A stretch of 63,582 nt of DNA, filler included, from Folioceros fuciformis (lineage: Eukaryota): NCBI GenBank assembly GCA_049999805.1. It is 13 parts of 13 records of this genome, joined end to end, with 100 filler letters (N's around TTAATTAATTAA, not from the genome) between each part and the next. Parts side by side here need not be neighbours in the genome. Positions count along the whole stretch, not along the records: positions 29,100 to 36,015 come from JBNGIO010002125.1; 12 more parts are not named here. One strand, given 5' to 3'. Shown piece by piece: positions 18,812 to 41,798 of the stretch. Made by a program: the position numbers and the translations under genes. The notes beneath the pieces were generated by a model that was given only the letters and a program-made list of their open reading frames with translations, had not been told where the DNA came from and searched no databases. Position 1 is the stretch's first letter; each line of letters starts with the position of its first letter.

Positions 18812-20932
18812 GATCCACCTGTGCGTGTGACAACACTATTAAAAGCTTTGTACGTGGAGAAAAAAAAGGACGGATTGACTCCCACGCTTGAACGATAATT
18901 TGCTTGTTAAGCTGGTACTAGAAGAGTGTTACTAAGCTTGCTCAGTTCAGCGTTCTACCTCGTCCTGCCTTGTCCTGGACAACACGAATGCAGTTGCTTG
19001 TAAGGTCGAGGACTGATTGGGTGCAAGATTTGGGTTGGGTTATCTGGTTGTCTTGTGTCCTACTATGGTAGTATGAAGGATATAATGGAGCAACCAAAAA
19101 TGGGGTTGATGCTGGCGATGCGTTTTGCTGGCTATTTAGTTAGTGTATCCGCGCGTAGGCTATCTGCGAGTGCGCCAGGACGGGTAAGTAAAGTGCCAGG
19201 TAAGCGGATGGCGGAGGGCAAGGCAGAATGTAGAAACGTGGATGCGGCGTCCATGCGCATACATATGTGCTGATGTATGTGGAGTGTGGAGTGTGGTTTG
19301 TTTTGCCGTCTAGAGTGGTGCGGTGCGGCGTCTGGCCTCGCCTCTCGGCTTCCTTGCCTCTCTGCTTCTCAGCCCTGCCCAGCCCAGCCCTGGGTCCTGC
19401 CTGACTGCCTGCCTGCCTTCCTTCCTTCCTGCTCTCTCTGCCTCTCGCCCCCGCGCGTCGCGCGACCATCCGGCTTTCGCACTCGCGCTCGCTCGCCGCC
19501 GTGTTGAGTGTGTGCGCCTTGGCGACTTCAGCTCGCTGTGCCTGCCCTTGCTCGCCCTCGCCCCTTGCCCTCCTCTGTTTGCCCTGCTGGCTCTTCTCCG
19601 CGCTGCCGCCATCTCTGCCGCCGGCGCCATCGCCAGCTCCCGGCGGAGCTCGGCCGCGCTGCAGGCCTCCGCAGATTTGTGCACGCCGAGATCGGCGAGC
19701 CGCGCCAGCCGGTTCCCGCTGCCCTGTGTCACAGCGGCGTCATCCCCTCCTCTCCGCCCGTCCCTGTGCTTGCCTGTGTCGGGATTTCTTGCGCCTCGCC
19801 TCGCCTCTCCTCTCCTCGCCTCGGCTCGTCTCCTTCCCTCGCCTCTGGCTGGGGTTTGTTTGCGAGCTCCCACTCCCGCTTCTCCCCCGGCGCGCGAGCC
19901 TGGAATTCCGCACTCGCGCTGTCACCCTCCCTGCTAGGGTAATGCCGTCCTGCTTCTTGCGTGCTTGATTTGACTGTCGTCCTGTGCGTCCCCGGGCTCC
20001 CCTGCCGTCGCCGCCGCTGTCGGCCTCGCCTGCAATTCTCGCTTCTTCTTGCGCCTCCTTCTCCCACCCGAGCTTACCCGCCCCGCCCCTGCCCGCCCCG
20101 CCCCGCTGGGCCTGTCCTGGCCTGGCCGGTGGCCGGGCCTTCTTGCTTCCGTCGCGGCATTCTCGCACTCAGCTCTGGGCTCCTCGGGCGGGACGGCACG
20201 GCACGGCACGGCACGGGACGTGGCTATTTATGTTCATCCTGGTGTGCGCTTCGATATCCTGAATTTGTGTGCCTGCGGTGAGTCCCGATCTTTGCGATTT
20301 GAGTTCAGTGTGTGCTTGGCAAGCCGGCGCACGCATGGCGCGCAGGCGTGTCATCTCTTCCCGAGCTCACTCCCTTTTTTGGTTCGTTGCTCCGTGAAGG
20401 CAAGTTTCTACTCTTATATGTATACGCGGCGCGGCTCCGGAGTTTTGAGCATCCAATTCGGAGCAGCAGGAGGACCAGGGAGGATTTATATTTGGAGACA
20501 AGGCCGGAGTGCGAAGCCGGGGAGTGAAGGGAGCGCTTAGGGTACACAAGCCGGACGAGACCACACCAGACCAGACGGGACGAGACAGGACAGTACACAC
20601 GACACGACACGGTAGTGTTTGTTGTGTTGTTGGTCGGGCAGGCTAAAGCTCAGTCTCAGGCTCAGGCTCAGGCAAAGGCGCAGGGGAAGTGAGTGTCTGA
20701 GTGTGTTCCACCAGTGTTACGCCGGTGCCCGTGCCCGTGCCGTTTATGTTAGCGGCGGGGAATTGCATCCGGCGGCGTGACGAGGGGATGGCGGGGAGCG
20801 TGTTCTCTCCCGACGCACCATGTATGTTGTGTTGCTGTGACTTCGATCTCCTCTCATTACTTCCCTTGGTCGACAGCTTCCGTCTGGGAGGTTGACTCGG
20901 ATCGTTTGTGGCGTCTTTGTCTCTGCTATATC

Positions 20933-22435
20933 ATGGCGACAGGGCTGGCCAAGTTCAACCGTCTGTTTTCTGCAATCCAAGACCAGTTGCAACAGTTGCG
21001 ACATATGTATGAGGAGCAGGAAAGGCAGCTGGCGCTGGTTGGCCCCGATGCCGCGCGCTTGCAAGGAGCGGAAGATGCCGGGGCCCAGCTGCTCGCGAGG
21101 GAACCGGAGCAGGTAGCGGCGATCGAGGCCGGGGGCCTTAAGGAGACGGAGGAGGTTAAGGAGGTTGAGGAGGCGGAGTCGGTGGCGCCGCCCCAGGTGC
21201 CTGCGCAGCTGGCGGTGGTTGCTGTCAGGACCGGTCTCCCACAATTGGGGCGGCAGGCGCAGGTGGAACCCGAGGATGTCACGGACGTGGAGCAGCCGGT
21301 GGAGGTGGCTGTAGGCAACAAGGAGGAGGACGTGGCAGCGGCGGCCGAGGGAACCCAGCGGAAGAGGGAGGGGGACTTGGAGTTGGAGCTGGATGAGAGT
21401 GAGGAGGATGGCGGGAAGGGCATGGTACTCGCCGTTATCAAGTCCGGCAAGAGGAAGGCGGTGTCGTTTCTTCAGGAGGGCGAGGGCGTGGATTCTGGCT
21501 CCGACCCCGAGCTGGACGTGAATGCCGGGAGGAGCAAGGGCTCCGATCTCGGGGGAGGGTCGTACAACCGGCTGCAGCGACGCGTGAAGAAGACGAGGAA
21601 CGTCGGGGGAGATGTGGATGATATTGTGGTTGCCGTTACAGGTACTGGGGCTGGCGCGGGCGTGGAGCAGGAACAGGGGCACAACTCCGACGCGGTTCGT
21701 GGTGTTGCGGGCCGTGGAGTGTTGGCGAAGGATGAGGCCGGTGCTCTTCCTGCCGTGGCTGCAGGTGCAGGTCCGGGGACCGTGGGGAGAGACAGCGCCA
21801 GCGCCACTGCCAGCGAGACTGACAGCTTCACTTCGACGAGGAGAGGCAGAATTGTGACGGCGGATTTGGGGACTGCCACTGACAAAGCTTTTCTCGGCAA
21901 GCACCAACCCGATCTGGATGTGCTCACCAGCGTGGCTGCGGCTATTGAGGCGGACGACAATGTTGCGTCTGCCGCGGCGGAGGATCCCATGCGCGTCGAG
22001 GCAGGGGAGGAGCGGATGTTGAGCATCCTGGCCCAGGAAGATGGCGATCTGGCGGAACAAGCGTTGCTCATTAAGAGCCTGTCCGCTCGCAAGGAGGGCA
22101 GGGTTGAGGCGATCTCGTCGTCGGAGGTGGTTGCTCGAGCATGTGCAGACTTCTTCAAGGCCTTGGCTCCTGCTCTGCCCGAAGGTTTTGCCGGGGGGCA
22201 GGAGATCGGTAGGTATTGTGAGTCTGATGGTGGCCCCGCTGCCTTGGCCCTTCGTGTGGGAAACTATATTAAGATGCAGCAAGATGTCATTGAGAAGGAG
22301 CGGAAGGCGAATCGGATGCTGGAGGCCAGTCTGGAGAAGGCCCAGCATGATAAGGAGCGGTGGCGGCTGGACAAGGAGCGGCTGTCCGCGCATTTTGGCT
22401 CCATTGCAACCACCGTCGAAGAGGGCAGCGCGTAA
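20933..22435 (+). CDS. Hypothetical acidic, low-complexity protein of about 500 aa with coiled-coil-like ends; may splice onward to 22662-23224
   Basis: ATG 20933 in good context (tcATGG), 1.5-kb open frame, donor-like c|gtaagt at 22432, further E/D/S/K-rich frame to the gap; no recognised domain. Confidence 0.5.
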   Translation: MATGLAKFNRLFSAIQDQLQQLRHMYEEQERQLALVGPDAARLQGAEDAGAQLLAREPEQVAAIEAGGLKETEEVKEVEEAESVAPPQVPAQLAVVAVRTGLPQLGRQAQVEPEDVTDVEQPVEVAVGNKEEDVAAAAEGTQRKREGDLELELDESEEDGGKGMVLAVIKSGKRKAVSFLQEGEGVDSGSDPELDVNAGRSKGSDLGGGSYNRLQRRVKKTRNVGGDVDDIVVAVTGTGAGAGVEQEQGHNSDAVRGVAGRGVLAKDEAGALPAVAAGAGPGTVGRDSASATASETDSFTSTRRGRIVTADLGTATDKAFLGKHQPDLDVLTSVAAAIEADDNVASAAAEDPMRVEAGEERMLSILAQEDGDLAEQALLIKSLSARKEGRVEAISSSEVVARACADFFKALAPALPEGFAGGQEIGRYCESDGGPAALALRVGNYIKMQQDVIEKERKANRMLEASLEKAQHDKERWRLDKERLSAHFGSIATTVEEGSA

Positions 22436-24089
22436 GTCTCTATCATTTTAGTTTGTTTCCTTGTGTGCGTGTACACGTCTGTGTGCCTTTTTTCTTTTCT
22501 TTTTTTAAATTTATGTGATTCAAGTTGCATCTCTCGATTCAAGTGCTGAGCCCTTTATGCATTTGCTCCCCGAACTTGTGGTGTACGGTCACCGGGTGTT
22601 GAGTTGTTGTTGCTAGTACCGGAGCTGTTTTCTCTAACTTACGAAGCTTCATTTGCTGCAGGACTTGTTCATATTGTCAATCCATTCTGAGCAAGCTTTC
22701 GGAGGAAAGTTTTCAGGATGCCTTCAAGCCGGAGGAGGGGCAAGTGGTTCCTTACAACCATCTCCAGGCTGAAGAGGAGGTTGCCCGCGCTGCCTCCAGC
22801 AGTTCTTCTGACGTGCCTGTGTCTGCAAGCAGGAAGGTGGTGACGCTCAGTGATGATGACAAGGGAGAGGGGTCGGAGCCTCAGCTGAGCAACGGGAAAG
22901 ATGGGTCTGCCTCCAGCTCCGGCGACGTGTTGCCCGTCACGAGGAAGAGAAGAGTGGAGGAGGTCATGGATGAAAAGCCCAAGGGCTATAAACGGAGGAT
23001 GGCGAAGGAAAAGGACAGCTCTGAGGTAAAGCAGCCTTCAGCAACCAGAGAGAGCAGCAGGCAGAGTAGCGACAAGGGCGGGGAGGTTGTGAGAAGATCT
23101 CGCAGACTGTCCGCACCTTCTAAGGAGTTCGACAACGATTTGGTGGAGGTTGATATCAAGCAGGTGGAAGATGTTGCTTCGGATGAGGACGTGGATGAGG
23201 AGCTGCCTGAAGCCAAATCGGAGGNNNNNNNNNNNNNNNNNNNNNNNNNNNNNNNNNNNNNNNNNNNNTTAATTAATTAANNNNNNNNNNNNNNNNNNNN
23301 NNNNNNNNNNNNNNNNNNNNNNNNATACAATATATTATAATAGGCTAACAAAGTAATATGTTAGCAGATCTGGATTATGAAAAGTTGGAGAAAAATAAAC
23401 CAAAAATAGTTGGATTTGATATTCCTCTTTTTTTTTTTTTTTTTTGAGGTTATGGTCCTTAACGGCTAAGAAGTGAGGATATGCGGAGAATAAATATGTA
23501 GAGATAAAAGACCTAAAAATATCTATCCCGCAAAAGATAAGGAACAAAAAGTATGAAACACCTAGCAACTGTATGACCGAAGGTGGATTAAATGCGATCA
23601 CTTACATGGTGTGCCCTAGAGATTATGTTGCCGCTGAGCCTCCAGTTGAATATGTGTCAAAGAAATGGAATTCACATAATGTGGCTATGTTCGGAACCAT
23701 GTAAAGAGTTCAAAGGTCACACTAAGCACATCTACAATAAGTGTTCTTGTACATATAAAAAAAAAGGTAAAAGGGGATAATATAATTAACCTTTGTTTTT
23801 ATTTATGTAGATGCTGCTTTGGCACTTAGCAAGGATGTCGGGGAGTATTATGAAGACTATTTAGAGATTGAGGAAGAAATGGAATATGTGGCTAAGAACT
23901 AGGCTTAGTGACAAGAAACTAATCTACCCATATAGCTGCTGATTTTTATCATTGGATTTACATAGACTTGGTATTTAATATATCTAAATTTTTCATATGT
24001 TTAGTATGTAATTTCTGACTGAGGGATTTTGTAAGTAAATCAGCTAAATTATCCTGAGTTTGTATGTAATGGATATCTGTCTATTTAAT

Positions 24090-26962: not shown

Positions 26963-27062
26963 NNNNNNNNNNNNNNNNNNNNNNNNNNNNNNNNNNNNNN
27001 NNNNNNTTAATTAATTAANNNNNNNNNNNNNNNNNNNNNNNNNNNNNNNNNNNNNNNNNNNN

Positions 27063-27925: not shown

Positions 27926-29531
27926 TAATGATGAGAATCACGCACGAACGTACTTGCCAAAAGAGCTTTTAGAGAATTGATTGCATTACATTATAAAAAG
28001 TTCATAAGTGTTTATATAGAAGCCTAGAAACGGTTACAACAATAAGTTGTTGTAACAATCAGTTGTTATAACTACTAACTACTAAATACCTAAGAAAACT
28101 ACTTGTTGCCCTTGTTACTTAAACATTTAATAATTGTTAAGTAAAGGTGCCCTAGTGAATAGTCCCCTATACCTATCATATTTCATCACTCCAACTCACT
28201 GTAAACTAAGGATGAAAAAATAGAGAATTTTTCTAGCTTCAAAAAGAGATTGAGTAGGCCTAAAATTGACATCTAGTTCTTCAGTAAAATAACTTAGAAA
28301 GTGTTTTAATTTATAAATCAATTAAAATTAATTTAATATTTAAATTAATTAAATTATAGATAATAAAATACCTATTAGAAACCATTTTATTTGACCCCCG
28401 TCCAAGGGCAAGCACGGTCTGTTGGGGTCAGTTCCCCTTGCCTCCATGCTCTTTGATAAATTGTTGTCCTCCATCTCCTTTTTCCTGGAAATGCTTGTAG
28501 GTGAGGAGATAGTGACAACTACCAGAGCATCCCCTTCATGCCTCCAAGTAGGATCGTAATGAGAGGGGGAGATTTTCCTGTATTGCTGTCAAGAACCTCT
28601 ATACGGCTGTGAAGTCCAGAGTTGGAAGGGCTGGCAATTAGGAGGAAGTTATTGATGCGAACTTCTAGTGCCTAGATTCCAGGCTAGGAGGTCAAAAAAA
28701 TAGGGCGCCCACACACCAGCACACCATTCAGAATCTCTAGAACCACAGCCATGCAAGGAGAAGCCACCAAAAACGTGATTTTGTGAATAGCAAGAGAAAA
28801 ATCTGCCGCCGTAGCAGCTAGGCTGCAAGCAACCATGGCTGCCATGGCGCGGAGTGAAGGGCAAGCTATCAGGATCATCAATCTGCATACCAGACCAGAA
28901 ATTTCAACAATTCCCGCTGTAATCCAGCTTCAAATCCGCCTATAGAGAAAAAGAAAAGGGCCGCCGCTATGGGCGAGAAGGCCACGACCACCGGGACGGN
29001 NNNNNNNNNNNNNNNNNNNNNNNNNNNNNNNNNNNNNNNNNNNTTAATTAATTAANNNNNNNNNNNNNNNNNNNNNNNNNNNNNNNNNNNNNNNNNNNNC
29101 GCCCCGCCTCGCCTTTATGTCGCATTCACTCGCAGGCTTTACGGTTTACGGCAAAGCCTACGTGGGGAGCGTACCTTCGCTTAGGCTGGCCCTGTCTCTG
29201 CCTCTGGCCCTGGCCCTGCCTCTCTAGCCTGGCCTGGTGCCCTGTCCAGTCCCCGCCACAATCGAGAGCCTGCAGGCCCTCTACCCTCTCTGCCCACTGC
29301 CTCTGCCGCTTCCTGCCCACCTCCACTTCGCACGACAATGCAAGAACAAGAAGAAGAAGAAGAAGCAGCGCACACAGAGCCGGGAGAAGGAGCAGCAGCA
29401 GCGGGAGCTGCCAGCACTACCACCAGCGGCGGCAGCCCCGTCTTCCTCCCTTCTTTTCTTGTTGCTTCTCCCTCTCCCGTTGCTCCGCCGCCGCCGCCGC
29501 CGCCGCAGCTGCAGCAGCAGGATCAGCAGCA

Positions 29532-32501
29532 ATGCGGAAGCGGGGCGTGGAGCTAATGCTGCTGCCGCCGCTGCGCCGCCTGCTCCTCCTCCTCCTGCTC
29601 CTGCAATTGGGGCCCCGAGCGCGGGGGGAGGACGATGGGGACGCGCTGCTCGAGCTGCGCAGCGCCTTCTCCACCTCTGCCGAGGGGGGCGTGCTGCCCG
29701 ACTGGGACCGCGTCACAAATCCTGATTTCTGCTCCTGGACCGGGGTTAACTGCTCCGGGGGAGTCGTCACCGGCCTCTTCCTCAACGGCACTAATTTGAG
29801 CGGGGAGCTCTCGCCCGCCATCGGAAAATTGAAGTCGCTTCTCTGGCTGCATCTCGACCTCAACAACCTCACGGGCCAGATACCCGGGGAGATTGGGGAC
29901 TGCCAGAGGCTGCAGGAACTCGATCTGTCCGGCAACATGTTCACGGGGGACATTCCCTACACCATACCGCAGCTCAGGGACTTGGAGCTGCTGTCGCTCA
30001 ACGGGAATCGGCTCACCGGTGTCATCCCCACCACGCTCTCGCAGCTACCCAGCCTCAAGGTTCTGGACCTGGCGCAGAACCGCCTCACGGGGGAGATACC
30101 GTCGCTCCTCTACTGGAGCAGCGTGCTGCTCTTCCTCGGCTTGCGGGAGAACAACCTCACGGGCCAGCTGTCCCCGGACATCTGCCGCCTCTCCAGCCTC
30201 TGGTATTTCGACATCCAGAACAACAACATATCGGGGCCTATTCCGGACACCATCGGGGACTGCACCTCCTTCCAGGTGCTCGTCCTGGGGAATAATCAGC
30301 TCACCGGGCCCATTCCCGACTCCATTGGCTATCTGCAAGTCAGCACCTTGTCGCTGCAGAACAATCGCCTCACGGGCGTCATTCCGGATGTCATCGGCCT
30401 CATGCAGGCGCTCATCGTGCTGGATTTGAGCGGCAACCTGTTGGAAGGCAGCATCCCGCCGTCTCTCGGCAATTTGACCTATGCTGACAAGCTCTACTTG
30501 AATGGCAATTTCTTGACAGGTCCTATTCCGCCGGAGCTGGGGAACATGTCCAAGCTCAGCTACCTCCAGCTCAACGACAACATGCTCACGGGGGAGATCC
30601 CCTCCGAGCTCGGTAGTCTGGATGAGCTCTTCCAGCTCATACTCTCCAACAACCTCCTCACGGGGCCCCTGCCCGAAAACCTCAGCGCCTGCACCGCACT
30701 CAATTACCTGGACGTGCACCAGAATCTCCTCAACGGCACCGTCCCCCCTCAGCTCGAGAGGCTCGACAACCTCACCTTCCTCAACCTCTCCTCCAACTTC
30801 TTCTCCGGCGACATTCCCGACCAGGTCTGCAACATCATCAACTTGGATACTTGGGACTTTTCTAACAATCTCTTCACCGGTCCTATTCCTTCTCGCGTCG
30901 GCAACCTGGAGCACCTCATCACTTTCGTTCTCCGGGGGAACCAACTCACAGGTGGGATACCCAAGAGCATCGGCAGGCTCGGCCAGAGTTTGACCTTCTT
31001 GGATCTGTCCGCCAACATGCTTTCGGGCGGCTTGCCCGTCGAGCTCGGCGAGTTGCAGCAGCTGGAGACGCTTATTCTCAACAACAACACCTTCTCCGGG
31101 CCTATTCCGCCGCAGATTTTGAACGGCTACAGCCTCAAGTACCTCAATCTCTCCTACAACAATTTCTCGGGCCAAGTTCCTACGGGCATCACTGTTTTTC
31201 CTCCCGATGCCTTCTTGGGCAACCAATTTTTGTGCCGCACCTCGTCTCCCACATGTGGCTCTCTCCCCCCAGCTTACAATGGCCGATTGGGAACGTCAGG
31301 GATATGGGGGATTGCAGTGGCCGCTGCCTGTTTGCTGGCATTCTTCATCTTCTGCCTCCTCAGATGGAGTCAGCCGGAGTTCTTCCTCAAGGGCCCGCAC
31401 AAGTCTTTCCCTGCCCGCTCCTACTCTGGCCCTCCGGCGCTTGTCATCTTCCACATGGGCATGGCCATCCACTCCTACGATGAACTCATGAGGATCACGG
31501 ACAACCTGAGCGACAAGTTCTTGATAGGCAGGGGGGCTTCCAGCGCAGTCTACAAGTGCGTGCTCAAGAATGGCCAAGCCCTGGCTATCAAGAAGTTATA
31601 TGCCCATCACCCCGAGAACGTGTTGGAATTCAAGGCCGAGCTGGAAACCGTTGGCAACGTCAAGCACCGCAACCTTCTCAGCCTGCGAGGGTACATGCTC
31701 TCCCCGACAGGCAATCTCCTCTTCTATGACTACATGGAGAACGGAAGCTTGTGGGATGTGCTTCATGGGGAGTACAAATCAGCCCTGGACTGGAGCACGC
31801 GTCTCAAGATCGCAGTTGGAGCGGCTCAGGGCCTGGCCTATTTGCATCATAATTGCAGCCCTCGTATCGTCCACCGCGATGTGAAGTCCTCCAACATTCT
31901 GCTCGATTCCAACTATGATGCCCGCCTCGCGGACTTTGGCATTGCCAAGAGTGTGGCCATGTCCAAGTCTTTCACCTCCACTTATGTCATCGGCACCATA
32001 GGCTACATCGATCCGGAATATGCTCAGACTTCTAGGCTGAATGAGAAGTCGGATGTGTACAGTTTCGGCATCGTGCTTCTAGAGCTGCTCACGGGCAGGA
32101 AAGCGGTGGATGATGCTGACAACCTACTTCAATTTGTCATGTCCAAGGTCAGGGATAATACCATTTTGGAGTTCCTGGATGAGCAAGTCCGATCCACCTG
32201 TGCCGATATGGCTCTGCCCGAAAGAGCGCTCAAGCTTGCCCTGCTGTGCACCAAGGAGAGCCCCAGCCTGCGGCCCAACATGTATGATGTGGCACAGGTT
32301 CTGCTCTCCCTGTTCGAGGTCTCTCTGCCCAAGCCCGTTGCTCCTGCCCATGGCCAGTCCCCATCCAGCCCTGGGCAACGCCGGTATCTGGATGACTACG
32401 TCGACACCAAGCACCGAAAGGACAGTTCAGAGAGCAGCTCCTCAGATGGCGCTCATCTCCTCTTCAAATTTGGAGAAGTCATCTCTCAGAACACGTCGTA
32501 G
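29532..32501 (+). CDS. ERECTA: ERECTA-family LRR receptor-like kinase (LRR-XIIIb), single exon, 989 aa
   Basis: Signal peptide, about 20 LRRs including LQVSTLSLQNNRLTG.IP.VIGLMQAL.VLDLS and LGNLTY.DKLYL; juxtamembrane GPP.LVI.HM.MAIH.Y.ELMR.TDNLS; GRGASS.VYKC.LKN, HRDVKSSN, DFG, GTIGYIDPEYA; C-terminal LFKFGEVISQNT. Confidence 0.95.
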   Translation: MRKRGVELMLLPPLRRLLLLLLLLQLGPRARGEDDGDALLELRSAFSTSAEGGVLPDWDRVTNPDFCSWTGVNCSGGVVTGLFLNGTNLSGELSPAIGKLKSLLWLHLDLNNLTGQIPGEIGDCQRLQELDLSGNMFTGDIPYTIPQLRDLELLSLNGNRLTGVIPTTLSQLPSLKVLDLAQNRLTGEIPSLLYWSSVLLFLGLRENNLTGQLSPDICRLSSLWYFDIQNNNISGPIPDTIGDCTSFQVLVLGNNQLTGPIPDSIGYLQVSTLSLQNNRLTGVIPDVIGLMQALIVLDLSGNLLEGSIPPSLGNLTYADKLYLNGNFLTGPIPPELGNMSKLSYLQLNDNMLTGEIPSELGSLDELFQLILSNNLLTGPLPENLSACTALNYLDVHQNLLNGTVPPQLERLDNLTFLNLSSNFFSGDIPDQVCNIINLDTWDFSNNLFTGPIPSRVGNLEHLITFVLRGNQLTGGIPKSIGRLGQSLTFLDLSANMLSGGLPVELGELQQLETLILNNNTFSGPIPPQILNGYSLKYLNLSYNNFSGQVPTGITVFPPDAFLGNQFLCRTSSPTCGSLPPAYNGRLGTSGIWGIAVAAACLLAFFIFCLLRWSQPEFFLKGPHKSFPARSYSGPPALVIFHMGMAIHSYDELMRITDNLSDKFLIGRGASSAVYKCVLKNGQALAIKKLYAHHPENVLEFKAELETVGNVKHRNLLSLRGYMLSPTGNLLFYDYMENGSLWDVLHGEYKSALDWSTRLKIAVGAAQGLAYLHHNCSPRIVHRDVKSSNILLDSNYDARLADFGIAKSVAMSKSFTSTYVIGTIGYIDPEYAQTSRLNEKSDVYSFGIVLLELLTGRKAVDDADNLLQFVMSKVRDNTILEFLDEQVRSTCADMALPERALKLALLCTKESPSLRPNMYDVAQVLLSLFEVSLPKPVAPAHGQSPSSPGQRRYLDDYVDTKHRKDSSESSSSDGAHLLFKFGEVISQNTS

Positions 32502-34725
32502 GGCTCCAGCTTCTGATTTTTGTATCTTGTTCCTCGGTCCAAACAGCAGGCTTGTCGACTTTTTGCCACCACGTTTGTATACATAAATGCCCACTAAAAT
32601 CTTCTGAATTCTGCTTCTGGTTTAGTACTGCAGGTCTCTAGTTCATCTAGGTAGTAAGTGAAACAGCAGGAAGTTCCAATCAAGCTAGTTGAGGGACGTA
32701 CCAGGAGAGGCGCTTTCTGTAGTTTGGACATCCACCTCCTAAGCTTCGTCAACAGAGTTCCGGCACCTCATCGTCGCGCCTTGTTTGAAGCGAAAACCTG
32801 TGTAACATTCGTCTTCCAATTAACATAACTGTGTAATGTACTTGCCATTGTGGCCCGAAGTTTGAGCCGATTTCGACTTCCAGAAGTGGCCTGCTAAGGC
32901 CTACTTTCGCCTTTCACCCATTCAACGAACTCTAGTGTCACGCTCGCACGTTTTCACTATATGCATGAAGATCGCCTCGTCCTGTCCCTTCGTTTGCATC
33001 TTCTCGCGCTTTGCGTGTGCGTGAAGTGTGAGACGTAGACATGTCGTTCTTACTTCCTCCTATTAAAGCACAGTTTGGCACCGACTTTTGAACGGGCGAT
33101 GTCAGGGCTTCATCCACTAGAAGCGCCCGGACCCACACCCTCTCTGGTCGATCAGAGTTTCATTGTAGCCCGAAAGATAAGTCCTGGCCGTTCCGATGGC
33201 TGATGCTATTCGTTGCCTCTGCAAACACAGCTATTTCTGGGGGTTTGATTAGTGAGGGTATTCCTGACGTCTGAACATCCTCCAACGTCTGGAGAACTAC
33301 CTATTCCTGAGGTCTGAGTCGAGCAGCTATTCCTGGCGTCCGTTGATATTACTGCCTCGGGAAGAGACGGTGGTCACTCCTTTCGGTCATGCTTTTCAGT
33401 CTTGGATGCTCGAGTACACTTGGGAGTCACTCATTCTACGGCTTTTCTTCTGATCCACACACTCGGCGCATGGACGCCCATGGGATTAGGTTTTGCGGTC
33501 AGGATATCGAGGGAAGAGCAGGTGGGCCTCCACACACGCTCTGCCACATTTACAAAGGCAGCTGTACTCAGCCGTGTCGTACCAGTACGTTTGGGTGCCG
33601 AGGCTCCCCATCATCACACTTTCTATTGAGATGGTAAAAACATAAGGTTGCCACAACGACGCAGGCGATCTGTCGCAAACTTCCTCTATCCCAAGCTAGA
33701 GATGGACGAAGCGCGTTCGGTCTTAAACCGTCTGCAAACCTAGCAAAAGCCCAAACTTGGCCCTAGCCAATCTTCTCTCTTCATGTCGAAAACTTCCGCT
33801 TCAACGAGCTGGCTGGCCGCCCACACAAAAGAGCCCCAATAGAACTCCAAAAAGCCAGAGAGAAGAAATGCCTGTCCACCGAAGGCTGGAAACAAGGCTA
33901 CATGAACCTTGCAAAAAAAGCCTGGTGATCACAAAAGAAACAGCCACAAAAGGAGGCACAGTGCTGATTTCCTCGTGCTGCATGCACTGGCATGGGCCAA
34001 GCTTAGACTCACAGCTAAAAACTCCACGGAACGACCCCCAACAGCTACTGCAAAAGAGGGAACCAGAAACCTGGCAAACACTCTTGAAAAAGAGGGAACA
34101 CCGACCCGCTGGATGACAGACTGACACTCGAGACCGACAAATAACCTTCACTGGGTGACAACACTAGGTGCACAGGAGAAAAAAAACCTAGACACACACC
34201 AGCCCTCATACTCTGCAATCTCCAAACCTCCACTGTAGAGAAGGTGAAAAACAAAGAATGCCCGAGATGCGTACACTACACTTAACTGCGCTGACACCAC
34301 CACACAAGACAGACTACTCGACTATACATAGTGCTGAGATAAGACAAGAGACAGCGGCATCAGACTGCATTATTTCAGCACGGTGGAGGGAGGAACCTGG
34401 AAAACCTGCACGACTCAAACCTCATCAGTGGGCTACATCCATCCACAGACAAGAAATCCTTGGTGTGACATGGACGACCTGCTCCACAGCAGCAGATCAC
34501 ACCCCCGGTACACACACAGAAAGACTCTTCTCCATACCCAAAGAAGAACGACATAAACCTTCCATGCACCAAGATTTCATCGCTTGACACCTGGAAGTGC
34601 ATTTGCAGAGTGCACCCGATCAAAAACATCTCCATAAATCCCTCGCAGTGGCAGGCTTCTCTTCTTCGAAGAGATGCCGTGCCAAACCACACACAAGGTC
34701 CAAGGGTATGCCGAGAGTCTTCACA

Positions 34726-36015
34726 TCAGACAGCAGTCTTCAATAGAGATTGTAACGATGTCACGATGTCATCTGCGGACATCTCACAGCCATCCTCCAT
34801 CTGCGAGAGTGCCATATTTCAGGAGTCAGGTGTCACCACGAAGTCTTCCCCAAAGCTTCCATTGTCTAGAGTCTCTCGAGTTCCGTATAGTGCAAGGCAG
34901 AGGCATACACGAAAGGAGTTTGCACCTAGGGTGCAGTGGCATCAGTGATGACAAACGGCAGCAGTTTACCTGGGCACTGAATGTCAGCTCGTGCGATGTT
35001 TCCGTGAAGGAAAGTATGTTGGCATTCATCACCACTAACTGCAAATTTTCGAGCTCCGCCAAGGCCTTGGGCAGAAGACCTTTCTTCTTCTCACAGTGGA
35101 TGCGGATCAGCACGTTCTTGTCGATCATGCGAGCCTCGATCTCAGGAGGTTGCTCGGTTACATCTGAGATCTCTTCGGATTCACCTGCCACGTCCTCGGT
35201 GGTTGAGCTCTTGGCCTCCTTACAAGAAGCTGCAATTAGCCTGACTGACGAGACAGAGCGCACTCGCTTGGGAGCCTGTTCCTCCATGGTCTTGAGGCGC
35301 TCCTGTAACTGCTTAACATACTTGATCGCATCTCCCAAAACGGAGGCCTTATCCATCTGGATAATCAACGGGGCCCCAGGCGGTATAACGATTCACAAAA
35401 ATGGTGAGAAGGTAGGAGACCATAAAAGATGACAGTGCAGTACCAGAGACTTGGACGACAAGGTCCAAGGACATACCTTCTTCAGACCTGGAACTATCGC
35501 CGACAAGGCAATGAAGCGCTGGCTAAGCTTTTCTCGTCGTTTACGCTCCGCCATGATGTGATCCTGTGTGTGTCCAGATCCCTTGGTTGGTACAGCCGGC
35601 GCCTTCACCTCCGCGTTCACTCTGAGGACGTTCAAGTCTGGATTGTAGACTTCCGGCTTGTGCCTGCCCCTAATAGATTCGGTGGGCGACAGGGGCATTT
35701 CCCCACGAGGCGCGCCCGAGCTGAGAGTTTCATGAGAAATCCCCTCTGTGACGCTGTCCAGAACGGCTGATCCCGGTGAGCCGCCCAGCTCCGGCTGGGT
35801 AGAAGGAGTCCTGGGTGCTCCAGTTTCCTGAATCTCATCTCGCATCTTGGCACCGAAGGCCTGCATGTGCAACTGCTGGGACAGAGAGTGATGCTGGTTC
35901 GTGTGCTGTTGCAAGTGATGCAGCTGCTGGTGCGGTTGTTGGTAAAATTGGTGCTGTCGAGCCCGCTGGAAAGCCACCGGCTGCGGCATACTGCTCTTCC
36001 CCACATAGCTCAAGT
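34726..36015 (-). CDS. bHLH transcription factor, subgroup IVa (bHLH18/19/20/25-like) with ACT-like C-terminus, 5'-truncated; exons >36015-35477, 35356-34970, 34800-34726
   Basis: QDHIMAERKRREKLSQRFIALSAIVPGLKK|MDKASVLGDAIKYVKQLQER; PEIEAR...VLIRIHCEK; last exon MEDGCEMSADDIVTSLQSLLKTAV*. Confidence 0.94.
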
Positions 36016-36115
36016 NNNNNNNNNNNNNNNNNNNNNNNNNNNNNNNNNNNNNNNNNNNNTTAATTAATTAANNNNNNNNNNNNNNNNNNNNNNNNNNNNN
36101 NNNNNNNNNNNNNNN

Positions 36116-38071
36116 GCCTTCTACTCTGGCAAAGGCAGAGGTAGAGCCCAAGGTGGCAGAGGGCAAAGAGGTGGTAGAGGTCAAAATTCCTACCAAAATC
36201 AGCAACAGAATCAGGAGTCCCAGTACAAGAGTACACGTGGAAGAGGAGAAAATTCTCAAGGCTGGGGGAGTCAAAGAGGACGTGGAAATCAACAACAAAA
36301 TGATGCAAATGAAAATAATAGTGGTTACTGGACTTCTGGTAGGTTAGACCACTTTGAAAGAGACTGTCCAAGGAGAAATCAAGGCAACAGGAGGCAGTAG
36401 AGCAATTATGCCTCTAGCAGTAGTCAGAATGACTCGGACAACTTGTTTGTCATGCAGCATATGCTTAACTCTGTGTCTGCTAATGGATCCACTAATGGTG
36501 AGATTGTGTGGTATGTGGACTCAGGAGCTTCAAACCACATGACATGCCATGGGGAGTGGTTCAAAGCAATGCAGGTGCTTGACAAACCTGGATATGTGGA
36601 AATTGGAGATGACACAACACATGCAATTGTGCATACAGGAACTGTACCTCCTAAGATGCAGGATGGCAAAGTGAAGTGCTTGGTAGATGTTCTTCACGTA
36701 CCCAACATCACAAAGAACTTGGTGTCAGTTGGGCAGATGGTTGAGCAAGGACTGCAGTTTAGGTTTACACCTGCAAGACTCTTTGTTGAAGAGTGCAAGA
36801 AAGGCGGTCGCCTGATTGCTCAAGGGCAGAAGGTTGGACGGATGTTCGCCTTGAACGTGGAGGTTCCTAAGCTGAAGTCAGCCATGTTTGCAAAGGGTAC
36901 AAGGGTAGTGACAGACCTAGAGATGTGGCACAAATGCATTGGACATGTAAATGTGCAGAAGTTGAAGGCCATGCAGCATCAGAAGGTTGTCACAGGCATA
37001 CCCAAGCTTACAGAAACTGGGCTGCAAGGTGTATGTGAAGCATGTCAACTTGGGAAACAGCCTAGGAATGCATTCCCCAAGATAAACATGTCAGCAAATA
37101 TGTGTTGGATGTTGTGCATTCAGATGTATGGGGTCCTACATAGACTGCATCAATCGGAGGATGCAAGTACTATGTGACCTTCATTGACGACCACACAAGG
37201 AAGGTGTGGGTCTATTTCATGAAAGAAAAAAATGAAGTGATCACTCATTTTCATACTTTCAAGGCGATGGTTGAGAAGGAGACAGGGAGGCACATCAAAT
37301 GCCTAAGATCTAATGGAGGGGGAGAGTACTTCTCTAGAGAGAGTCAGTTTATGCAGGTGCCAAGAAAGCCACATTTGGATGCAGTAAGGAGAACGTTGCG
37401 CTATGTGACGGCAACTATGGATCATACTCTCTTTTATGCTGTAGATTCAGAAATAAACTTGTGTGGGTACACAAATGCAGATTGGGCAGGCAGTGTTACA
37501 GATCGTAGATCTACAAGTGGATTCATATTTTCACTTGGGAGTGCAGCAATAACATGGAGTAGCAAGAAGCAGCCTACAGTGGCTTTGTCTAGTACAGAAG
37601 CTTAATACAGAGCCGCAGCAATGGCAGCGTGTGAAGTGACTTGGATTTGTAAGTTACTCGGAGATTTTGGATTGCAGGTCAACGACAAGGTTGTTATCTA
37701 CTGTGACAATCTTAGCAGCATACAATTGGCGCGAAACCCGTTTCATGCCAGGATGAAACACATTGAGGTACATTATCATTTTCTTCGAGAAAGGATTTTA
37801 TCTAGAGTTATTGATCTTGTGTATGTCAACATAGACGAGCAGATAGCCGATATATTTACTAAACCAATGGGAGTAGAGAAGCTGAAGAAATTCCGAGAAA
37901 TGTTAGGCATACAGATGCTATGTTGAGCTCGAGGGGGAGTGTTGAGTTATCGAGCTCTATATATAAGCTAAACTCATGTGGTGTTAGTTATTCCGGTTGG
38001 GTTCATACTAAACTAGTTCTAGTGAGTAATGAACTTAGGATAGTGTAGATTATCCCATATTGAACTTGGAA
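36116..38071 (+). mobile_element. Ty1/Copia element, internally deleted: gag knuckle remnant, protease, GAG-pre-integrase, partial integrase fused to RT end/RNase H, PPT and 3' LTR start (37940)
   Basis: WYVDSGASNHMT, WHKCIGH...CEACQLGKQ, FIDDHTRKVWVYF, GGEYFS, ADWAGSVTDRRSTSG, WSSKKQPTVALSSTEA, KHIEVHYHF, ADIFTK, then gagggggag-TGTTG. Confidence 0.95.
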
Positions 38072-38664
38072 NNNNNNNNNNNNNNNNNNNNNNNNNNNNN
38101 NNNNNNNNNNNNNNNTTAATTAATTAANNNNNNNNNNNNNNNNNNNNNNNNNNNNNNNNNNNNNNNNNNNNCAAAGCACGCATTGTTAGCTATCGTCCCG
38201 GTATACCGCCTCATTGGCCTCGGCAAACCGGTTGTTTCGGTCACACAGGCCGGAGCCGCAGGACGAAAGCAAGACATGAGCGGCTAATGGGCAAACGAAA
38301 TACTGTAGTGTAGGTCCCTTGGACCTGTCAGACTCGCCGATCTCCGCGTTATGCATTATTCCATGTCTTGGCTTCTAGACACCAAGAATGCAACTGCCTA
38401 TCTTTTTTTTAATAATTATAAATACGGTATGGATTAACGGTCGTCGGTCACGAGAAAGAAAATATATATTTTATTCATCATCCTCGTATATTAATCCTAT
38501 TGAAGTACCAGTATTTTCTATTCTTGAAAAAGAGATGGAAGAAAGTCCCATTTACTCCATAAATAAGAGGAACAACCTAAAACCACCTATTGCTCCTAAA
38601 ATGTTATGATAAGGAATAACAAAAATCCTACCTACTATTGCTGCAGAAGAAACTATTTGACCTA

Positions 38665-38980
38665 TGCTTGTTGTTGTTCTAAAAATCGCATTGGTCAATG
38701 TTCTTTGCAAAACAATAGATCCACGTTATTGAAGGAAGAATGCTTGTTATTGTTCTAAAACTCACATTGGTCAATGCTCTTTGCAAAGCAATGTATACAC
38801 GTTGTCGAAAGAAGAAATGTTTGTTGTTGTTCTAAAATTCACGTTAATCAATGCTCTTTGCAAAGCAATGGATACACGTTGTCGAAAGAAGAATGTTTGT
38901 TGTTGTTTTAAAAATCACATTGATCAATGTTGTTTGCAAAACAATGGATCTTTGCAATGGATAAACGTTGTCGAAAGAAG
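38665..38980. repeat. Tandem repeat of about 76 bp, 4 copies
   Basis: Units start near 38665, 38741, 38818, 38894; tg(c/t)ttgttgttgttctaaaa...tcaatgctctttgcaaagcaat...cacgttgtcgaaagaagaa. Confidence 0.88.
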
Positions 38981-39267
38981 GCCACCACAGAAGAAAGAGA
39001 AAGAGGAGAGCACAATTCTTATGACTCCGATAAACCTTGGCGCACTCCAAAGAAAATAAGCCATCCTTTGGACCCCTTGTAATGAAAAGGGAAACATATA
39101 GGCATTTGAAGTTGAAGAAGTTGTCTCGTGACATGTGATCCAACCCAACATCAGAATGTGATAGAAGCTAGCATATTGTGCAACAAAGATAGAGTTCATG
39201 CCAAATAATGAAAAGTTTCATAACATGAATTTGTAGCTGAGGAGAAAACCATCTTATTGCTAAAATA

Positions 39268-39484
39268 ACTTCAATATAATGCTAGGATGTCATCATGAAC
39301 TTGTTGAGGATAGTTGAGTGTTAACCATTGGCTGCAACTCCCACGATATGGTTGATATCATGCATTGGCCATAATTAGACAAATAACATATCATTTCAAT
39401 ATGTTGTGGATTTTGACAACACAAATAGCCACAACTAATGCCATATCAATACGTTCGTTAGACCCACAAAAACAAATGGGTTGC
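39268..39484. repeat. Direct repeat of about 215 bp; second copy at 42293-42508
   Basis: acttcaatataatgctaggatgtcatcatgaactt...cgttagacccacaaaaacaa in both copies. Confidence 0.9.
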
Positions 39485-40345
39485 CACTAGCATAGTATTA
39501 GGCCACTGCGACATGTTTCTTTGTTTTGAGGAATTTGCTAATCTCTCATTTTGAAAATATTTTGTTAATATAATATTACATCTTGCCCTCTTGTTCTACA
39601 ACGCTTAAGTTATGTGTTTGGTTGTCCACTTTATTATGCTCATACAAATCCCTCTTTGGGACTTCATTATCTTCAATTAGATCAAATATCTTGTATAGGT
39701 TGAACTTCCAAGACATGAAATTCTAAATGCCCCTCCACAAGACTAGTGAAAAATCAATCAAGCACATGCGGTAACACCTTTCTCTATATAGCCAAAAAAA
39801 AAGAAAAGCAATATGATACTATAAAAGATATTGAAAGCACACGAGGTCAAAGTTTGGCATGACCGCATCCTTGCATTGACAGCCCAATTCTTTCCACCAT
39901 TCGTAGCATGCCACATCCGCAACTTAACCTACTACAAATAGTTAATGTGATGTCTAATAAGGTTAAATGATCATTAATATTTTAAATAAAATATTATCAA
40001 ATACTTAAAAAAAACAGCTAGAGAGATGCATGTATGAAAACGTGTTGCAGACTGGCTACGAGTGATAGTAAGACTTAATGGTTTAGAGCTTAACAAAGGT
40101 CTACTTTATGCTATTACTAAAGAATAATGTTAGACGTGAGTAGTAAGTTGATTTAGTTGATAACTTAAGAAAGCTATGCTTAAGCCAGTAACTAAAGAGT
40201 AACATCAAACCTTGATGTAAAAGGGGCCTAGCCCATGATTTAGGGTTTTAGGGTTTGGGAGCATAGAGTGGTAAGACAACATCGTTCATGGGAGACTATA
40301 ATCTCTCTTTGTCTCTCTCTCTATCTATTTAAGCAAAGACGAGTT

Positions 40346-40605
40346 CTCTATAAGCTCTTGCCTTCTCTCCAAGCTCTTGCGTTATCTTCAAGCTCTTAGG
40401 TTCTTTCCACGCTCTCAGGTTCTCTCCAAGCTTTCAAGTTCTCTCCGAGCTTTTAGGTTCTCTCCAAGCTTTCGGGTCCTCTCCAAGCTCTCAGGTCCTT
40501 TCCAAGCTCTCGGGTTCTCTTCAAGCTCTCGAGTTCTCTCCAAGCTCTCAGGTTCTCTTCAACCTCTCGGGATCTCTTTGAGCTCTCAAGTTCTCTCTAA
40601 ATTCT
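40346..40605. repeat. 19-bp minisatellite, about 13 copies
   Basis: Consensus ctctccaagctctcaggtt. Confidence 0.9.
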
Positions 40606-41063
40606 CGTGCATTTTTCATGATTCAATGATAAGGAGGCGCTTCTTGAGAACTTATAATGCTAAGGGGCCATAGGTTGTGGAAGCCTGAAGTGCTCTCTCT
40701 TTGTAAGGGTTTTTTTAGGCAAAGACGAGGAATTTTGGTGAGTTCTCTCTTACCTTGTGTGCATTCTCATTGACTCATGGTGAGTAATAAGCAGTAGCAT
40801 AATAAAAAATGCTAACTACTAGTCCTCCTCGGATAGGAGGCCCGGTAGGCTACTTTGAGGCCTAATGCTTATGTTAGGTATTTGGTGTCTTCCATGTTGT
40901 TGGCAGGCAGTTAGTTGATAATTCAAGGAAAGGAATTATATTTTTTGGTACCTCATGTTTGTATATAAACAAGTTAGCTTCATAGTCCTAGATAAATTGT
41001 TCTCATACATATAACAAACACAAGGGGAATCTTAGGTGCCCAACATATTTTTGTTCGATCAAA

Positions 41064-41798
41064 ATGACAAAGTCATTAGCCTTAAAGGGTTTAGAAGGTG
41101 ACGCAATTCAGGTTGATTCTTCATACTCTGAGTTGTCAAATTCTAAGATAAATAACTCATTTAAAGATGTCATAATTACTCCACCTCAATGTCTTCCAGA
41201 TGATTTTCCTAGCCCAACAGTTAGGGCAAAAGAGTCAGGATATGGGTGGCCATATGCCTTAATGCCTTGGCCAGGTCTTGGGGATGAATGGACATGGAAA
41301 GGTTTTGGTAAGCCTCAAAAGTGTAATCCATATTGGGCGAGTAGATCTGTAACTGCTCCACAAGCATTTTACAAGAGAGGGGAAAGAAGGAAGAGCTTTA
41401 AGAGCAAAGAAAACATTTGCAGATATTTAAAAGAAAATTATCCACAAATACATTCAGATGACTTCTTAGTATCTATTCAATGGAAGATACCTATCAAAAT
41501 TGAGGATCACTCTATTGGTGAGGTACAAATGGAGATAAAATCAATATCCAAGACAATGCATGAACAACAAAACCTACTTCCCAACATCTTAAAGTCTATG
41601 TCAACTCCCTCTTCCTTGAAGAGATCATGTGAGGAGTCAAATACTTTTTTTGAAAACAAGAAAGCCTCAAAAAATTGTAGACAAGTTGCAGATCAATGTA
41701 CTGTAAATATGCCATCTTCCCAAGAGATATTTGAAGAACATAATTGTCCAATGAGATTTTTGAAGAAAAGGGAGATACCGTGGCTATTGAGCCATTGA
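41064..41798 (+). CDS. AT-rich intronless ORF with a plant SGxG(L/W)PYA..WP.(P/L)GD.W.W domain (DUF7081-like, MBD-like); possibly TE-borne or decaying
   Basis: ESGYGWPYALMPWPGLGDEWTWK...SFKSKENICRYLKENYP...DDFLVSIQWKIP matches my recollection of the At1g05410/At3g22520 N-terminal domain; coding-like sequence continues in another frame with stops. Confidence 0.55.
   Translation: MTKSLALKGLEGDAIQVDSSYSELSNSKINNSFKDVIITPPQCLPDDFPSPTVRAKESGYGWPYALMPWPGLGDEWTWKGFGKPQKCNPYWASRSVTAPQAFYKRGERRKSFKSKENICRYLKENYPQIHSDDFLVSIQWKIPIKIEDHSIGEVQMEIKSISKTMHEQQNLLPNILKSMSTPSSLKRSCEESNTFFENKKASKNCRQVADQCTVNMPSSQEIFEEHNCPMRFLKKREIPWLLSH

Follow-up and report, generated by a model that had tools for sequence, protein, structure and literature searches.

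In the window (the whole stretch of DNA analysed, 63,582 nt including its artificial linkers), we identified what reads as a working, transcribed, single-exon gene of the ERECTA (ER) family from a non-seed land plant, and we think it likely that its introns were lost together, by way of a reverse-transcribed mRNA. A multi-intron structure is a conserved character of this family in published surveys. A survey of 56 species that takes in Marchantia, Physcomitrella and Selaginella gives 22–29 introns for ER genes and 25–27 for about 90% of ERL genes, with some ERL genes described as having "fewer introns" (PMC5902711). The intron richness of the family elsewhere, on which the initial annotation had relied, is thereby borne out. 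Against these 22–29 introns, the gene described here has one exon. Among the papers listed by full-text searches of the literature there is no report of an intronless ERECTA or ERECTA-like gene, and public annotations from this lineage may already show one.

Architecture of the open reading frame

The coordinates of the gene, its domains and its surroundings are collected in Table 1. A single open reading frame of 2970 nt extends uninterrupted from ATG to TAG and encodes 989 residues followed by the stop, with exactly the position and length given in the initial annotation. The hallmarks of the family and the catalytic motifs that had been claimed there are likewise all in place: Pfam detects LRRNT_2, LRR families and Pkinase in the translated frame, and the 20 leucine-rich repeats (LRRs), the transmembrane helix, the RD kinase and the C-terminal FGEVIS motif are intact. 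The motif N-x-L-x-G-x-[IP] recurs 19 times, with a period of 23–25 residues, between residues 111 and 543; together with a first repeat near residue 87 this yields 20 LRRs, and the array can be followed in the DNA as a 72-nt periodicity. Cysteine pairs cap the ectodomain at its N-terminal (67/74) and C-terminal (568/575) ends, and the cleavage site of the putative signal peptide was placed by means of an alignment of 15 proteins. Arabidopsis ERECTA, ERL1 and ERL2 (LRR-RLK XIIIb) share this whole arrangement of LRRNT cap, 20 LRRs, transmembrane helix, RD kinase and C-terminal motif.

The kinase motifs GRGASSAV, K687, HRDVKSSN, DFG and DPE are all kept. Within the activation segment, T817, T822, Y825 and Y830 occupy invariant columns of the 15-protein alignment and, judging from their spacing relative to the GT dipeptide, are probably the counterparts of T807, T812, Y815 and Y820, residues of functional importance in Arabidopsis ER (PMC5441908). 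A short stretch at the C-terminus of ER-family proteins is conserved (PMC5441908), and the FGEVISQN tail aligns across all 15 sequences, some of them with minor variants. Judging from family membership, EPF/EPFL peptides would be the ligands of the 20-LRR ectodomain, with a TMM-like or SERK protein as the probable partner, and the RD kinase would pass the signal into the cell by way of a MAPK cascade.

The GC content of the coding sequence is 57.6%, and its GC3 is 77%. GC3 declines along the gene from 0.85–0.87 in the first 900 nt to 0.65–0.69 at the 3' end, in keeping with the GC-rich LRR half that had been remarked upon earlier.

Table 1. Positions of the ER gene, its predicted domains and flanking features in the window
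Feature	Position	Strand	Evidence
Artificial linker N44-TTAATTAATTAA-N44, left end of ER contig	29000..29099	.	Sequence
6916-nt contig with ER gene and part of convergent bHLH gene	29100..36015	.	X2, X3 tiling
Transcribed unit, 3490-nt RNA-like contig (X1 record 1)	29375..32840	+	0 differences, 0 gaps, no joint
Single-exon CDS, ERECTA-family LRR receptor kinase	29532..32501	+	ORF call, Pfam, alignment, tblastn
Signal-peptide-like N-terminus, aa 1-32, Leu-rich	29532..29627	+	Hydrophobic windows from aa 6 and 8
LRRNT_2 cap, Cys pair C67/C74	29631..29756	+	Pfam (aa 34-75), motif scan
20 plant-type LRRs, 24 residues each, no island domain	29766..31211	+	Alignment, motif scan
Transmembrane helix, about aa 586-614	31287..31373	+	Hydrophobic segment
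RD protein kinase domain	31521..32300	+	Pfam Pkinase aa 664-921, motifs, alignment
C-terminal tail motif LFKFGEVISQNTS, conserved in ER family	32460..32498	+	Alignment, motif scan
3' UTR to transcript contig end	32502..32840	+	X1 contig; no genomic A-run at or after 32840
Convergent bHLH factor, bHLH18/19/25/NAI1 type (MpBHLH41-like), truncated by contig end	33234..36015	-	Database matches

Family membership and phylogenetic position

By its sequence, the frame is an intact ERECTA-family (LRR-RLK XIIIb) gene. The ERL2 and ERL1 ectodomains lead the matches to solved structures, scoring 598–602 bits over residues 34–570 and aligning with the query gap-free (structures compared: 5XJO, 5XKJ and 5XJX for ERL1, and 5XKN for ERL2); GSO1 follows with 516 bits. 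Of 7712 database matches, the best 120 share 48–60% identity with the query; wherever one of these bears a functional name, it is ERECTA, ERL1, ERL2, SIK1, ER1 or "LRR-XIIIb", the full name of match P0066 being "RLK-Pelle-LRR-XIIIb". The top-scoring relatives in this set of 120 are ERL1 of Selaginella moellendorffii (two genes) and ER-family proteins of Diphasiastrum, with 57–61% identity over 96–97% of the length, and no bryophyte ER sequence occurs in the same set. Angiosperm ER and ERL proteins are 54–57% identical to the query over their full length and have the activation-segment Thr and Tyr residues in common with it. In a library clustered at 50% identity, all members of the ER family fall together in a single cluster, and the library thus supplies outgroups only; there, the ER representative scores 1190 bits with 58% identity, whereas receptor kinases from outside the family that are about as long do not exceed 705 bits, at 36–41% identity.

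In a tree of 41 rows, drawn without bryophyte ER or LRR-XIIIa sequences, the query is placed inside the ER clade with an SH-aLRT of 100 and is separated by a branch of 3.15 from six outgroup LRR-RLKs. Within this clade it forms part of an unresolved fork at the base, on an end branch of 1.22 against a median of 0.21. The free tree thus gives it no close kinship to the lycophyte ER proteins; a clade uniting the query with lycophytes is nevertheless compatible with the data (AU p = 0.585), the log-likelihood of the constrained tree being 2.3 units higher. A set of 14 ER proteins from vascular plants has 369 invariant positions; the query departs from the common residue at 42 of them, compared with 1–10 departures for each of those 14, and one of its departures is the loss of a cysteine (C532G). 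These departures and the long end branch may reflect only an old lineage, and a changed or relaxed function is possible as well.

Genomic context

The window consists of 13 contigs of 1.9–10 kb joined by 100-nt linkers of the kind listed in Table 1. Since the joints are artificial, the IF2, PPO and pirin genes, which lie on contigs other than the ER contig (29100–36015), are not proven neighbours of the ER gene. The initial annotation had set the ER gene among intron-rich neighbours, and for IF2 the intron content stands: a Marchantia IF2 protein matches positions 44798–48225 in seven tblastn segments and three frames, indicating a multi-intron gene, and the adjoining bHLH gene has two introns. 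IF2, PPO and pirin belong to the same assembly as the ER gene, but on separate contigs their adjacency to it may be only apparent. The IF2 reading frame finds its best matches, at just 42–51% identity, across liverworts, mosses, Selaginella and Closterium.

The bHLH introns lie at 34801–34969 (169 nt) and 35357–35476 (120 nt), have GT..AG ends, and are spliced out of the X1 and X4 contigs; those of X2 and X3 keep them. Best matches of the bHLH exon, with 41–62% identity, are spread across gymnosperms, ferns, liverworts, mosses and Selaginella. Neither the IF2 frame nor the bHLH exon has a near relative among its database matches. We considered this neighbour as a stomatal bHLH factor of the SMF or ICE/SCRM type and rejected the assignment, its relatives being named bHLH18, bHLH25, NAI1 and MpBHLH41 instead. 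The GC content of the window (49.3%) and the intron lengths of 120–169 nt resemble figures for Anthoceros angustus, which we record as a resemblance only.

Genomic presence and transcription

Aligned by tblastn, the Selaginella ERL1 protein matches the window in one segment of 960 residues, at positions 29631–32492, in one frame and with 59.9% identity, and in the 15-protein alignment the reading frame contains no insert of more than five residues. The X1 contig that defines the transcribed unit carries a further 24 nt that fall in a masked microsatellite just upstream of 29375. As a control for splicing in X1 we used the adjoining bHLH gene, in which X1 shows two joints with CT..AC ends; the intergenic stretch 32841–33233 has no X1 coverage. 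X1 and X4 are taken to be RNA on account of their splice joints, neither being on record as such. DNA contigs of X2 and X3 tile the ER contig and join the reading frame to its bHLH neighbour, the introns of the neighbour being retained, and one of them (X2 record 10, 7057 nt) matches 29542–36015 without a difference. X2 may have been sequenced from the sample behind the assembly, in which case it would not be independent of it.

The colinear transcript contig, in conjunction with DNA contigs that retain the neighbour's introns, thus indicates that the gene is genomic, intronless and transcribed. No intron interrupts its coding sequence or the stretches of untranslated region that lie under the transcript contig, and it is transcribed, the contigs speaking to the presence of a transcript rather than to its level. 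A spliced 5'-UTR exon may lie upstream of about 29351, where the contig ends at the microsatellite.

A copy of the gene in a related organism (organism B, the species of run X4) differs at 168 of 1966 nt, which corresponds to about 91% identity. Third codon positions account for 28 of the 40 listed differences (P = 2e-6 against an expectation of one third). The loss of introns would accordingly be older than the split from a relative that is about 9% diverged, and the ER gene would have been under purifying selection since that split.

Origin of the intronless gene

How did an ER gene come to be without introns? We favor one cDNA-mediated event because more than 20 independent, exact deletions would be far less likely. 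Most probably, all introns were removed in one go through a reverse-transcribed mRNA, either by insertion of a processed copy at a new site, with a parent that was later lost or is still present, or by recombination of the cDNA with the original locus. A relocated copy and a replacement in place may be equally compatible with the data; accordingly, the lineage may have no other ER gene and may have lost the introns of this one in place by cDNA recombination, or the gene may equally be a retrocopy that has outlived its parent.

The introns of the family are absent across the whole of the covered mRNA, as is characteristic of retrogenes. Between 29100 and 33912 there is no A-run of seven or more nucleotides, and none follows 32840; among 20 of the 24 direct-repeat families, none flanks the transcribed unit with one copy upstream of 29375 and another downstream of 32840. 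Both observations agree with the initial annotation, which had seen neither a poly(A) remnant nor a target-site duplication. We count this lack of a reverse-transcription footprint, with neither a poly(A) tract nor a flanking direct repeat, against our preferred account. At a likeness of at least 85%, no second ER-like contig turns up in three runs of this organism, one of them RNA-like and two from DNA, and the other contigs in these runs give only short kinase-motif matches at that threshold. The original proposal of a retrogene formed via mRNA consequently stands in part: the gene is without introns, genomic and transcribed, but its reading as a retrogene in the strict sense is no more than a possibility, with neither a poly(A) tract nor a target-site duplication nor, in these three runs, a second contig at 85% or above. 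That GC composition offered an escape route from intron dependence, as was also proposed, is speculation; the GC3 gradient is real, and nothing in the data links it to expression.

It is conceivable, though on balance unlikely, that the gene is a processed extra copy at a new locus and that an intron-rich parent ER gene still resides elsewhere in the genome. All family-typical introns are missing, and the long branch with its many changes at otherwise invariant sites is what one would expect of a relocated duplicate. A weak hint in the same direction comes from Selaginella, in which, judged indirectly from scaffold lengths, the ER genes (scaffolds of 1.97 and 1.46 Mb) lie apart from the closest bHLH25 gene (2.31 Mb), while the two kinds of gene are adjacent here; this comparison carries little weight, however, because synteny is rarely kept over such distances. 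The absence of a parent at 85% likeness or above from the three runs implies that any parent would have to be an old, diverged paralogue, and the missing poly(A) tract and target-site duplication likewise speak against a copy of this kind.

Deletion of the introns singly or in small groups, in a lineage drifting toward fewer introns, appears improbable. Hornworts, one candidate lineage, average only 3.8 introns per gene (PMC7027989), and a link of our gene to hornworts is a guess. Such a course would require more than 20 exact, in-frame deletions, yet short introns persist in the same assembly, both in IF2 with its seven segments and in the bHLH gene with at least two introns. More improbable again is an ER gene that never had introns in this lineage, with introns gained in the other land plants. 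The basal, unresolved fork in which the ER tree places the query would accommodate this, but the ER genes of liverworts, mosses, lycophytes and seed plants are all reported to be multi-intron (PMC5902711), and the AU test leaves room for a lycophyte affinity. Finally, an artefact, be it a cDNA or transcript wrongly built into the assembly or a chimeric contig, is scarcely credible in spite of the heavy fragmentation of the assembly, because X2 record 10 starts inside the reading frame, crosses the intergenic region into the neighbour with its introns still in place, and extends 583 nt past the contig end, and X3 contigs tile the same stretch.

Relation to known systems

Functional plant retrogenes are intronless copies of intron-bearing genes. 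Like them, the gene described here is intronless, expressed and apparently under selection; unlike them, it comes with no poly(A) remnant or target-site duplication, nor, at 85% likeness or above in the three runs, with a parent gene. Returning to a cDNA-mediated loss of all introns as the preferred origin, we suggest tentatively, and with more doubt than attaches to that origin, that the gene encodes the sole ER receptor of a land-plant lineage that branched off early and is missing from annotated databases, at a guess a hornwort or, just as well, a deep branch of the lycophytes, and that it has been expressed without introns since before two species split. If this is true, the intron dependence of ERECTA in Arabidopsis would be specific to its lineage rather than a property of the family, and the gene would constitute a natural reagent for finding what replaces introns.

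What is the relevance of an intronless ER gene? ERECTA is a standard example of intron-dependent mRNA accumulation, to which a natural, conserved and transcribed intronless ER gene is an exception. The closest artificial counterpart is the intronless ERECTA cDNA transgene of Arabidopsis, likewise an ER coding sequence without introns. Little mRNA is reported from that transgene, by Karve et al. 2011 as cited in the passages of two later papers that deal with it (PMC5902711, PMC5296948), whereas a full-length transcript contig could be assembled for the natural gene. Comparing the two could separate sequence features, such as the enrichment of GC3 toward the 5' end, from splicing as such. For surveys of gene families, the gene also counsels caution, in that a low number of introns in an ER-like gene is not automatically an annotation error.

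Intronless Structure and Transcription of the ER Gene

Our analysis confirms and strengthens the initial annotation's central observation, an uninterrupted 2,970-nt reading frame: the ERECTA-family (ER) gene is genomic, transcribed, conserved, and intronless, and its intronless state is real. In tblastn searches of the window, a Selaginella ERL1 protein gave one unbroken 960-aa alignment, all in the same frame (29631-32492, 59.9% identity); a Marchantia IF2 protein, by contrast, matched its own counterpart in seven segments over three frames (44798-48225). Logan contigs from four public sequencing runs were aligned to the contig carrying the gene (29100-36015). Three runs (X1, from 2017, and X2 and X3, both from 2025) bear the same organism label, and X4 that of a related organism. 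A 3540-nt contig of X1 lies on 33234-34800, 34970-35356, and 35477-36015 of the neighboring bHLH gene, its two joints skipping 169 and 120 nt with ends CT..AC; on the minus strand the skipped segments read GT..AG (GTAAAC...TCGCAG and GTATGT...ATCCAG). Because these joints skip GT..AG introns, X1, which is not on record as RNA, contains spliced RNA. A second X1 contig, of 3490 nt, follows 29375-32840 with no other letters, no gaps, and no joint, its other 24 nt falling within the masked microsatellite just upstream of 29375. Between the two genes, 32841-33233 has no X1 coverage. The 3490-nt contig is the ER mRNA, with a 5' UTR of 157-181 nt or more, the complete coding sequence, and 339 nt of 3' UTR, entirely colinear with the genome.

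X2 and X3 behave as DNA. Record 10 of X2 (7057 nt) reproduces 29542-36015 without a difference, keeps both neighbor introns, and extends 583 nt past the end of the window's contig, and X3 contigs tile 29112-35806. Since these DNA contigs join the reading frame to the neighbor with its introns retained, cDNA contamination and a chimeric contig are ruled out. X2 may come from the same sample as the assembly, so its independence is uncertain.

The related organism provides a view of constraint. X4, which is RNA-like, shows the same two joints in the bHLH gene; its ER copy is likewise seen at the level of RNA-like contigs. One contig on 29638-31603 has 168 differences in 1966 nt (8.5%), and another on 31629-32671 has 81 differences and 17 gaps. 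Among the 40 of 452 X4 differences that were listed, all at 29675-30050, 28 fall at third, seven at first, and five at second codon positions (P = 2e-6 against one third each). Purifying selection has acted on the ER gene since the two organisms split.

Features of the window. Positions are window coordinates unless given as residues (aa) of the ER protein.
Feature	Position	Strand	Remarks
Polyphenol oxidase (PPO) gene	249-2023	+	Contig 1, apart from ER; tyrosinase, DWL, KFDV domains; at least 2 ORFs
PPO gene	8795-10498	-	Contig 2, apart from ER; tyrosinase, DWL, KFDV domains; at least 2 ORFs
Pirin	12938-13456		Contig apart from ER
ER coding sequence	29532-32501	+	Single ORF, 2970 nt, ATG to TAG, 989 aa
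LRRNT_2 cap	aa 34-75		Pfam
LRR families	whole ectodomain		Pfam
Cys pairs	aa 67/74 and 568/575		Motif scan
Hydrophobic segment	about aa 586-614		Motif scan
Protein kinase domain	aa 664-921		Pfam
bHLH gene	33234-36015	-	Convergent to ER; ACT-like domain; 5' part cut by contig end
Ty1/copia-type polyprotein fragment	36401-37174	+	Pol beta-barrel and GAG-pre-integrase domains; short contig after ER contig
IF2	38172-48225		Contig apart from ER
DUF7081 ORF	40992-41795	+	IF2 contig, upstream of IF2
Linkers	6173-6272, 14832-14931, 18193-18292, 23225-23324, 26963-27062, 29000-29099
Linkers	36016-36115, 38072-38171, 48226-48325, 54166-54265, 56331-56430, 60199-60298

Family Membership and Position

The claim of an intact ERECTA-family receptor is borne out by domains, structure matches, alignment, and tree, which agree in assigning 29532-32501 to this family. 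A motif scan found 19 copies of N-x-L-x-G-x-[IP] at aa 111-543, spaced by 23-25 residues, which with a first repeat near aa 87 give 20 LRRs and are matched by a 72-nt periodicity in the DNA; it also detected GRGASSAV, HRDVKSSN, DFG, and DPE in the kinase and FGEVIS at the C-terminus. Among solved structures, the top four matches are ERL2 and ERL1 ectodomains (598-602 bits, aa 34/35 to 568/570), and the next receptor is GSO1 at 516 bits. Of 8000 candidates scored in a 5.8-billion-protein collection, 7712 match; the top 120 show 48-60% identity over 65-100% of the query, and their functional names, where given, are ERECTA, ERL1, ERL2, SIK1, ER1, and once "RLK-Pelle-LRR-XIIIb". Searching a library clustered at 50% identity gave 1190 bits (58% identity) for its ER representative, P0006, and no more than 705 bits (36-41%) for other receptor kinases about 1000-1100 aa long. 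A 15-sequence alignment is colinear end to end, with no query insert longer than 5 aa, and the query retains the short stretch at the very C-terminus that is conserved across the family (Kosentka et al., PMC5441908). The same authors found T807, T812, Y815, and Y820 in the activation segment of Arabidopsis ER to be functionally important; by spacing from the GT dipeptide, these probably correspond to T817, T822, Y825, and Y830 of the query, all invariant columns in the alignment. A maximum-likelihood tree was built from 41 rows, namely 35 ER-family sequences including the query and six other LRR-RLKs as outgroup; its ER clade has SH-aLRT 100 and contains the query.

Within the family, the tree's ER rows, none of them from a bryophyte, split three ways at the base, into the query, the lycophytes (support 93), and the euphyllophytes (99). 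The query's end branch measures 1.22 against a median of 0.21, angiosperm ER root-to-tip paths being about 1.0-1.2. When the query was constrained to group with the four lycophyte rows, the log-likelihood rose 2.3 units above that of the free search, and the AU test does not reject this lycophyte affinity (p = 0.585). The 14 other aligned ER proteins, all from vascular plants, share 369 invariant positions, at 42 of which the query departs; left out in turn, each of the 14 shows 1-10 departures. Most of the query's departures are conservative, the exceptions being C532G, G569R, and D251V. C532G removes a conserved Cys in LRR 19, G569R lies beside the C-terminal Cys cap, and N76G and N83F change the first repeat. 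Database searches with IF2 and bHLH gave no closer relative than did that with the ER protein: best matches are a mixture of liverworts, Selaginella, mosses, and Closterium for the IF2 ORF (42-51% identity) and of gymnosperms, ferns, liverworts, mosses, and Selaginella for a bHLH exon (41-62%). The searched collections thus contain no annotated close relative of this land-plant lineage. The window's GC content (49.3%) and introns (120-169 nt) resemble, and do no more than resemble, the 49.6% GC and mean intron of 173 nt given for the hornwort Anthoceros angustus (PMC7027989), and a hornwort origin is a guess.

Loss of the Introns

How did the gene come to lack introns? According to a 56-species survey spanning Marchantia, Physcomitrella, and Selaginella (PMC5902711), all ER genes have 22-29 introns and about 90% of ERL genes 25-27; its authors regard a multi-intron structure as a family character and put the few ERLs with fewer introns down to annotation errors. 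Because the family carries so many introns, a single event via a reverse-transcribed mRNA would be much more likely than more than 20 exact deletions. Wholesale cDNA-mediated loss, as the initial annotation proposed, is therefore likely, but the reading as a retrogene is only partly supported, with parent and relocation putative. A retrocopy might sit beside a surviving parent, a retrocopy might have outlived its parent, or cDNA might have recombined in place; these routes are comparable in likelihood, and only the first would be a retrogene in the strict sense. Other contigs in the three runs of this organism, at 85% likeness or more, match only a short conserved kinase motif (31859-31906), which excludes a recent ER parent gene; an old parent is possible. 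As originally noted, poly(A) remnant and target-site duplication are lacking: no run of seven or more A's occurs in 29100-33912, nor does any follow the end of the transcript at 32840, and of the 20 direct-repeat families shown (24 were found), none has copies both before 29375 and after 32840.

What is the relevance of an intronless ER gene? Among the papers listed on ERECTA or ERECTA-like genes and intronless genes or retrogenes, we found no report of an intronless plant ER gene; those on ERECTA-like and intronless genes dealt with maize EPF genes and melon ABCB genes, and those on retrogenes mostly with Drosophila. Public gene models of the lineage may already record this gene as one exon. 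Of two hornwort genome papers, the available text of one (PMC8075897) names an ERECTA orthologue but says nothing of how the gene is built, and that of the other (PMC7027989) does not mention one. The gene is a new structural variant of a well-known family, and it runs counter, as a case found in nature, to the rule that ERECTA expression depends on introns.

The LRR half was correctly described as GC-rich. GC3 is 77% over the coding sequence; within this one exon it starts at 0.85-0.87 (first 900 nt) and declines steeply, reaching 0.65-0.69 at the 3' end. GC content is 64% in the 5' flank and 45% in the 3' UTR. Steep 5'-to-3' GC3 gradients are best known from grass genes. A tie between GC3 enrichment and intron-independent expression is a candidate link, conjectural at most. 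A run rich in CTG and CTC codes for the signal peptide. Microsatellites of (GAA)n, (GCC)n, and (CAG)n occupy 29334-29374 and 29476-29532 in the 5' UTR, reaching the start codon, and RNA and DNA Logan contigs alike break there.

Genomic Neighborhood and Other Features

Twelve identical linkers of 100 nt, each a six-frame stop spacer of the form N44-TTAATTAATTAA-N44, split the window into 13 contigs of 1.9-10 kb, and reading frames or neighborhoods crossing them are artificial. The stop-to-stop frame 29052-32501, for example, begins within a linker. The only other gene on the ER contig is the bHLH gene. The contrast with intron-rich neighbors holds assembly-wide and for the bHLH gene, with its two introns; IF2, PPO, and pirin lie on other contigs and are at most putative neighbors.

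The bHLH gene has deep coverage by RNA-like contigs of runs X1 and X4. It is not a stomatal factor of SMF or ICE type, its relatives being named bHLH18, bHLH25, NAI1, and MpBHLH41. The closest relatives of bHLH and of the chloroplast IF2 share the same "longest contig" length in Selaginella (2,305,360), Marchantia polymorpha (30,125,287), and Riccia fluitans (60,055,272), and the contigs of the two genes (29100-36015 and 38172-48225) are two apart in the window; this may be a sign of ancient linkage, with the contigs standing in their true order. The two Selaginella ER genes are on scaffolds other than that of the bHLH and IF2 relatives.

Elsewhere, 19000-22500 has a GC content of 60-65% and no Pfam match, with very long open frames on either strand (567 and 560 aa at 20744-22447); the region may be low-complexity or repeat DNA. 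The two PPO genes lie on separate contigs in opposite orientation.
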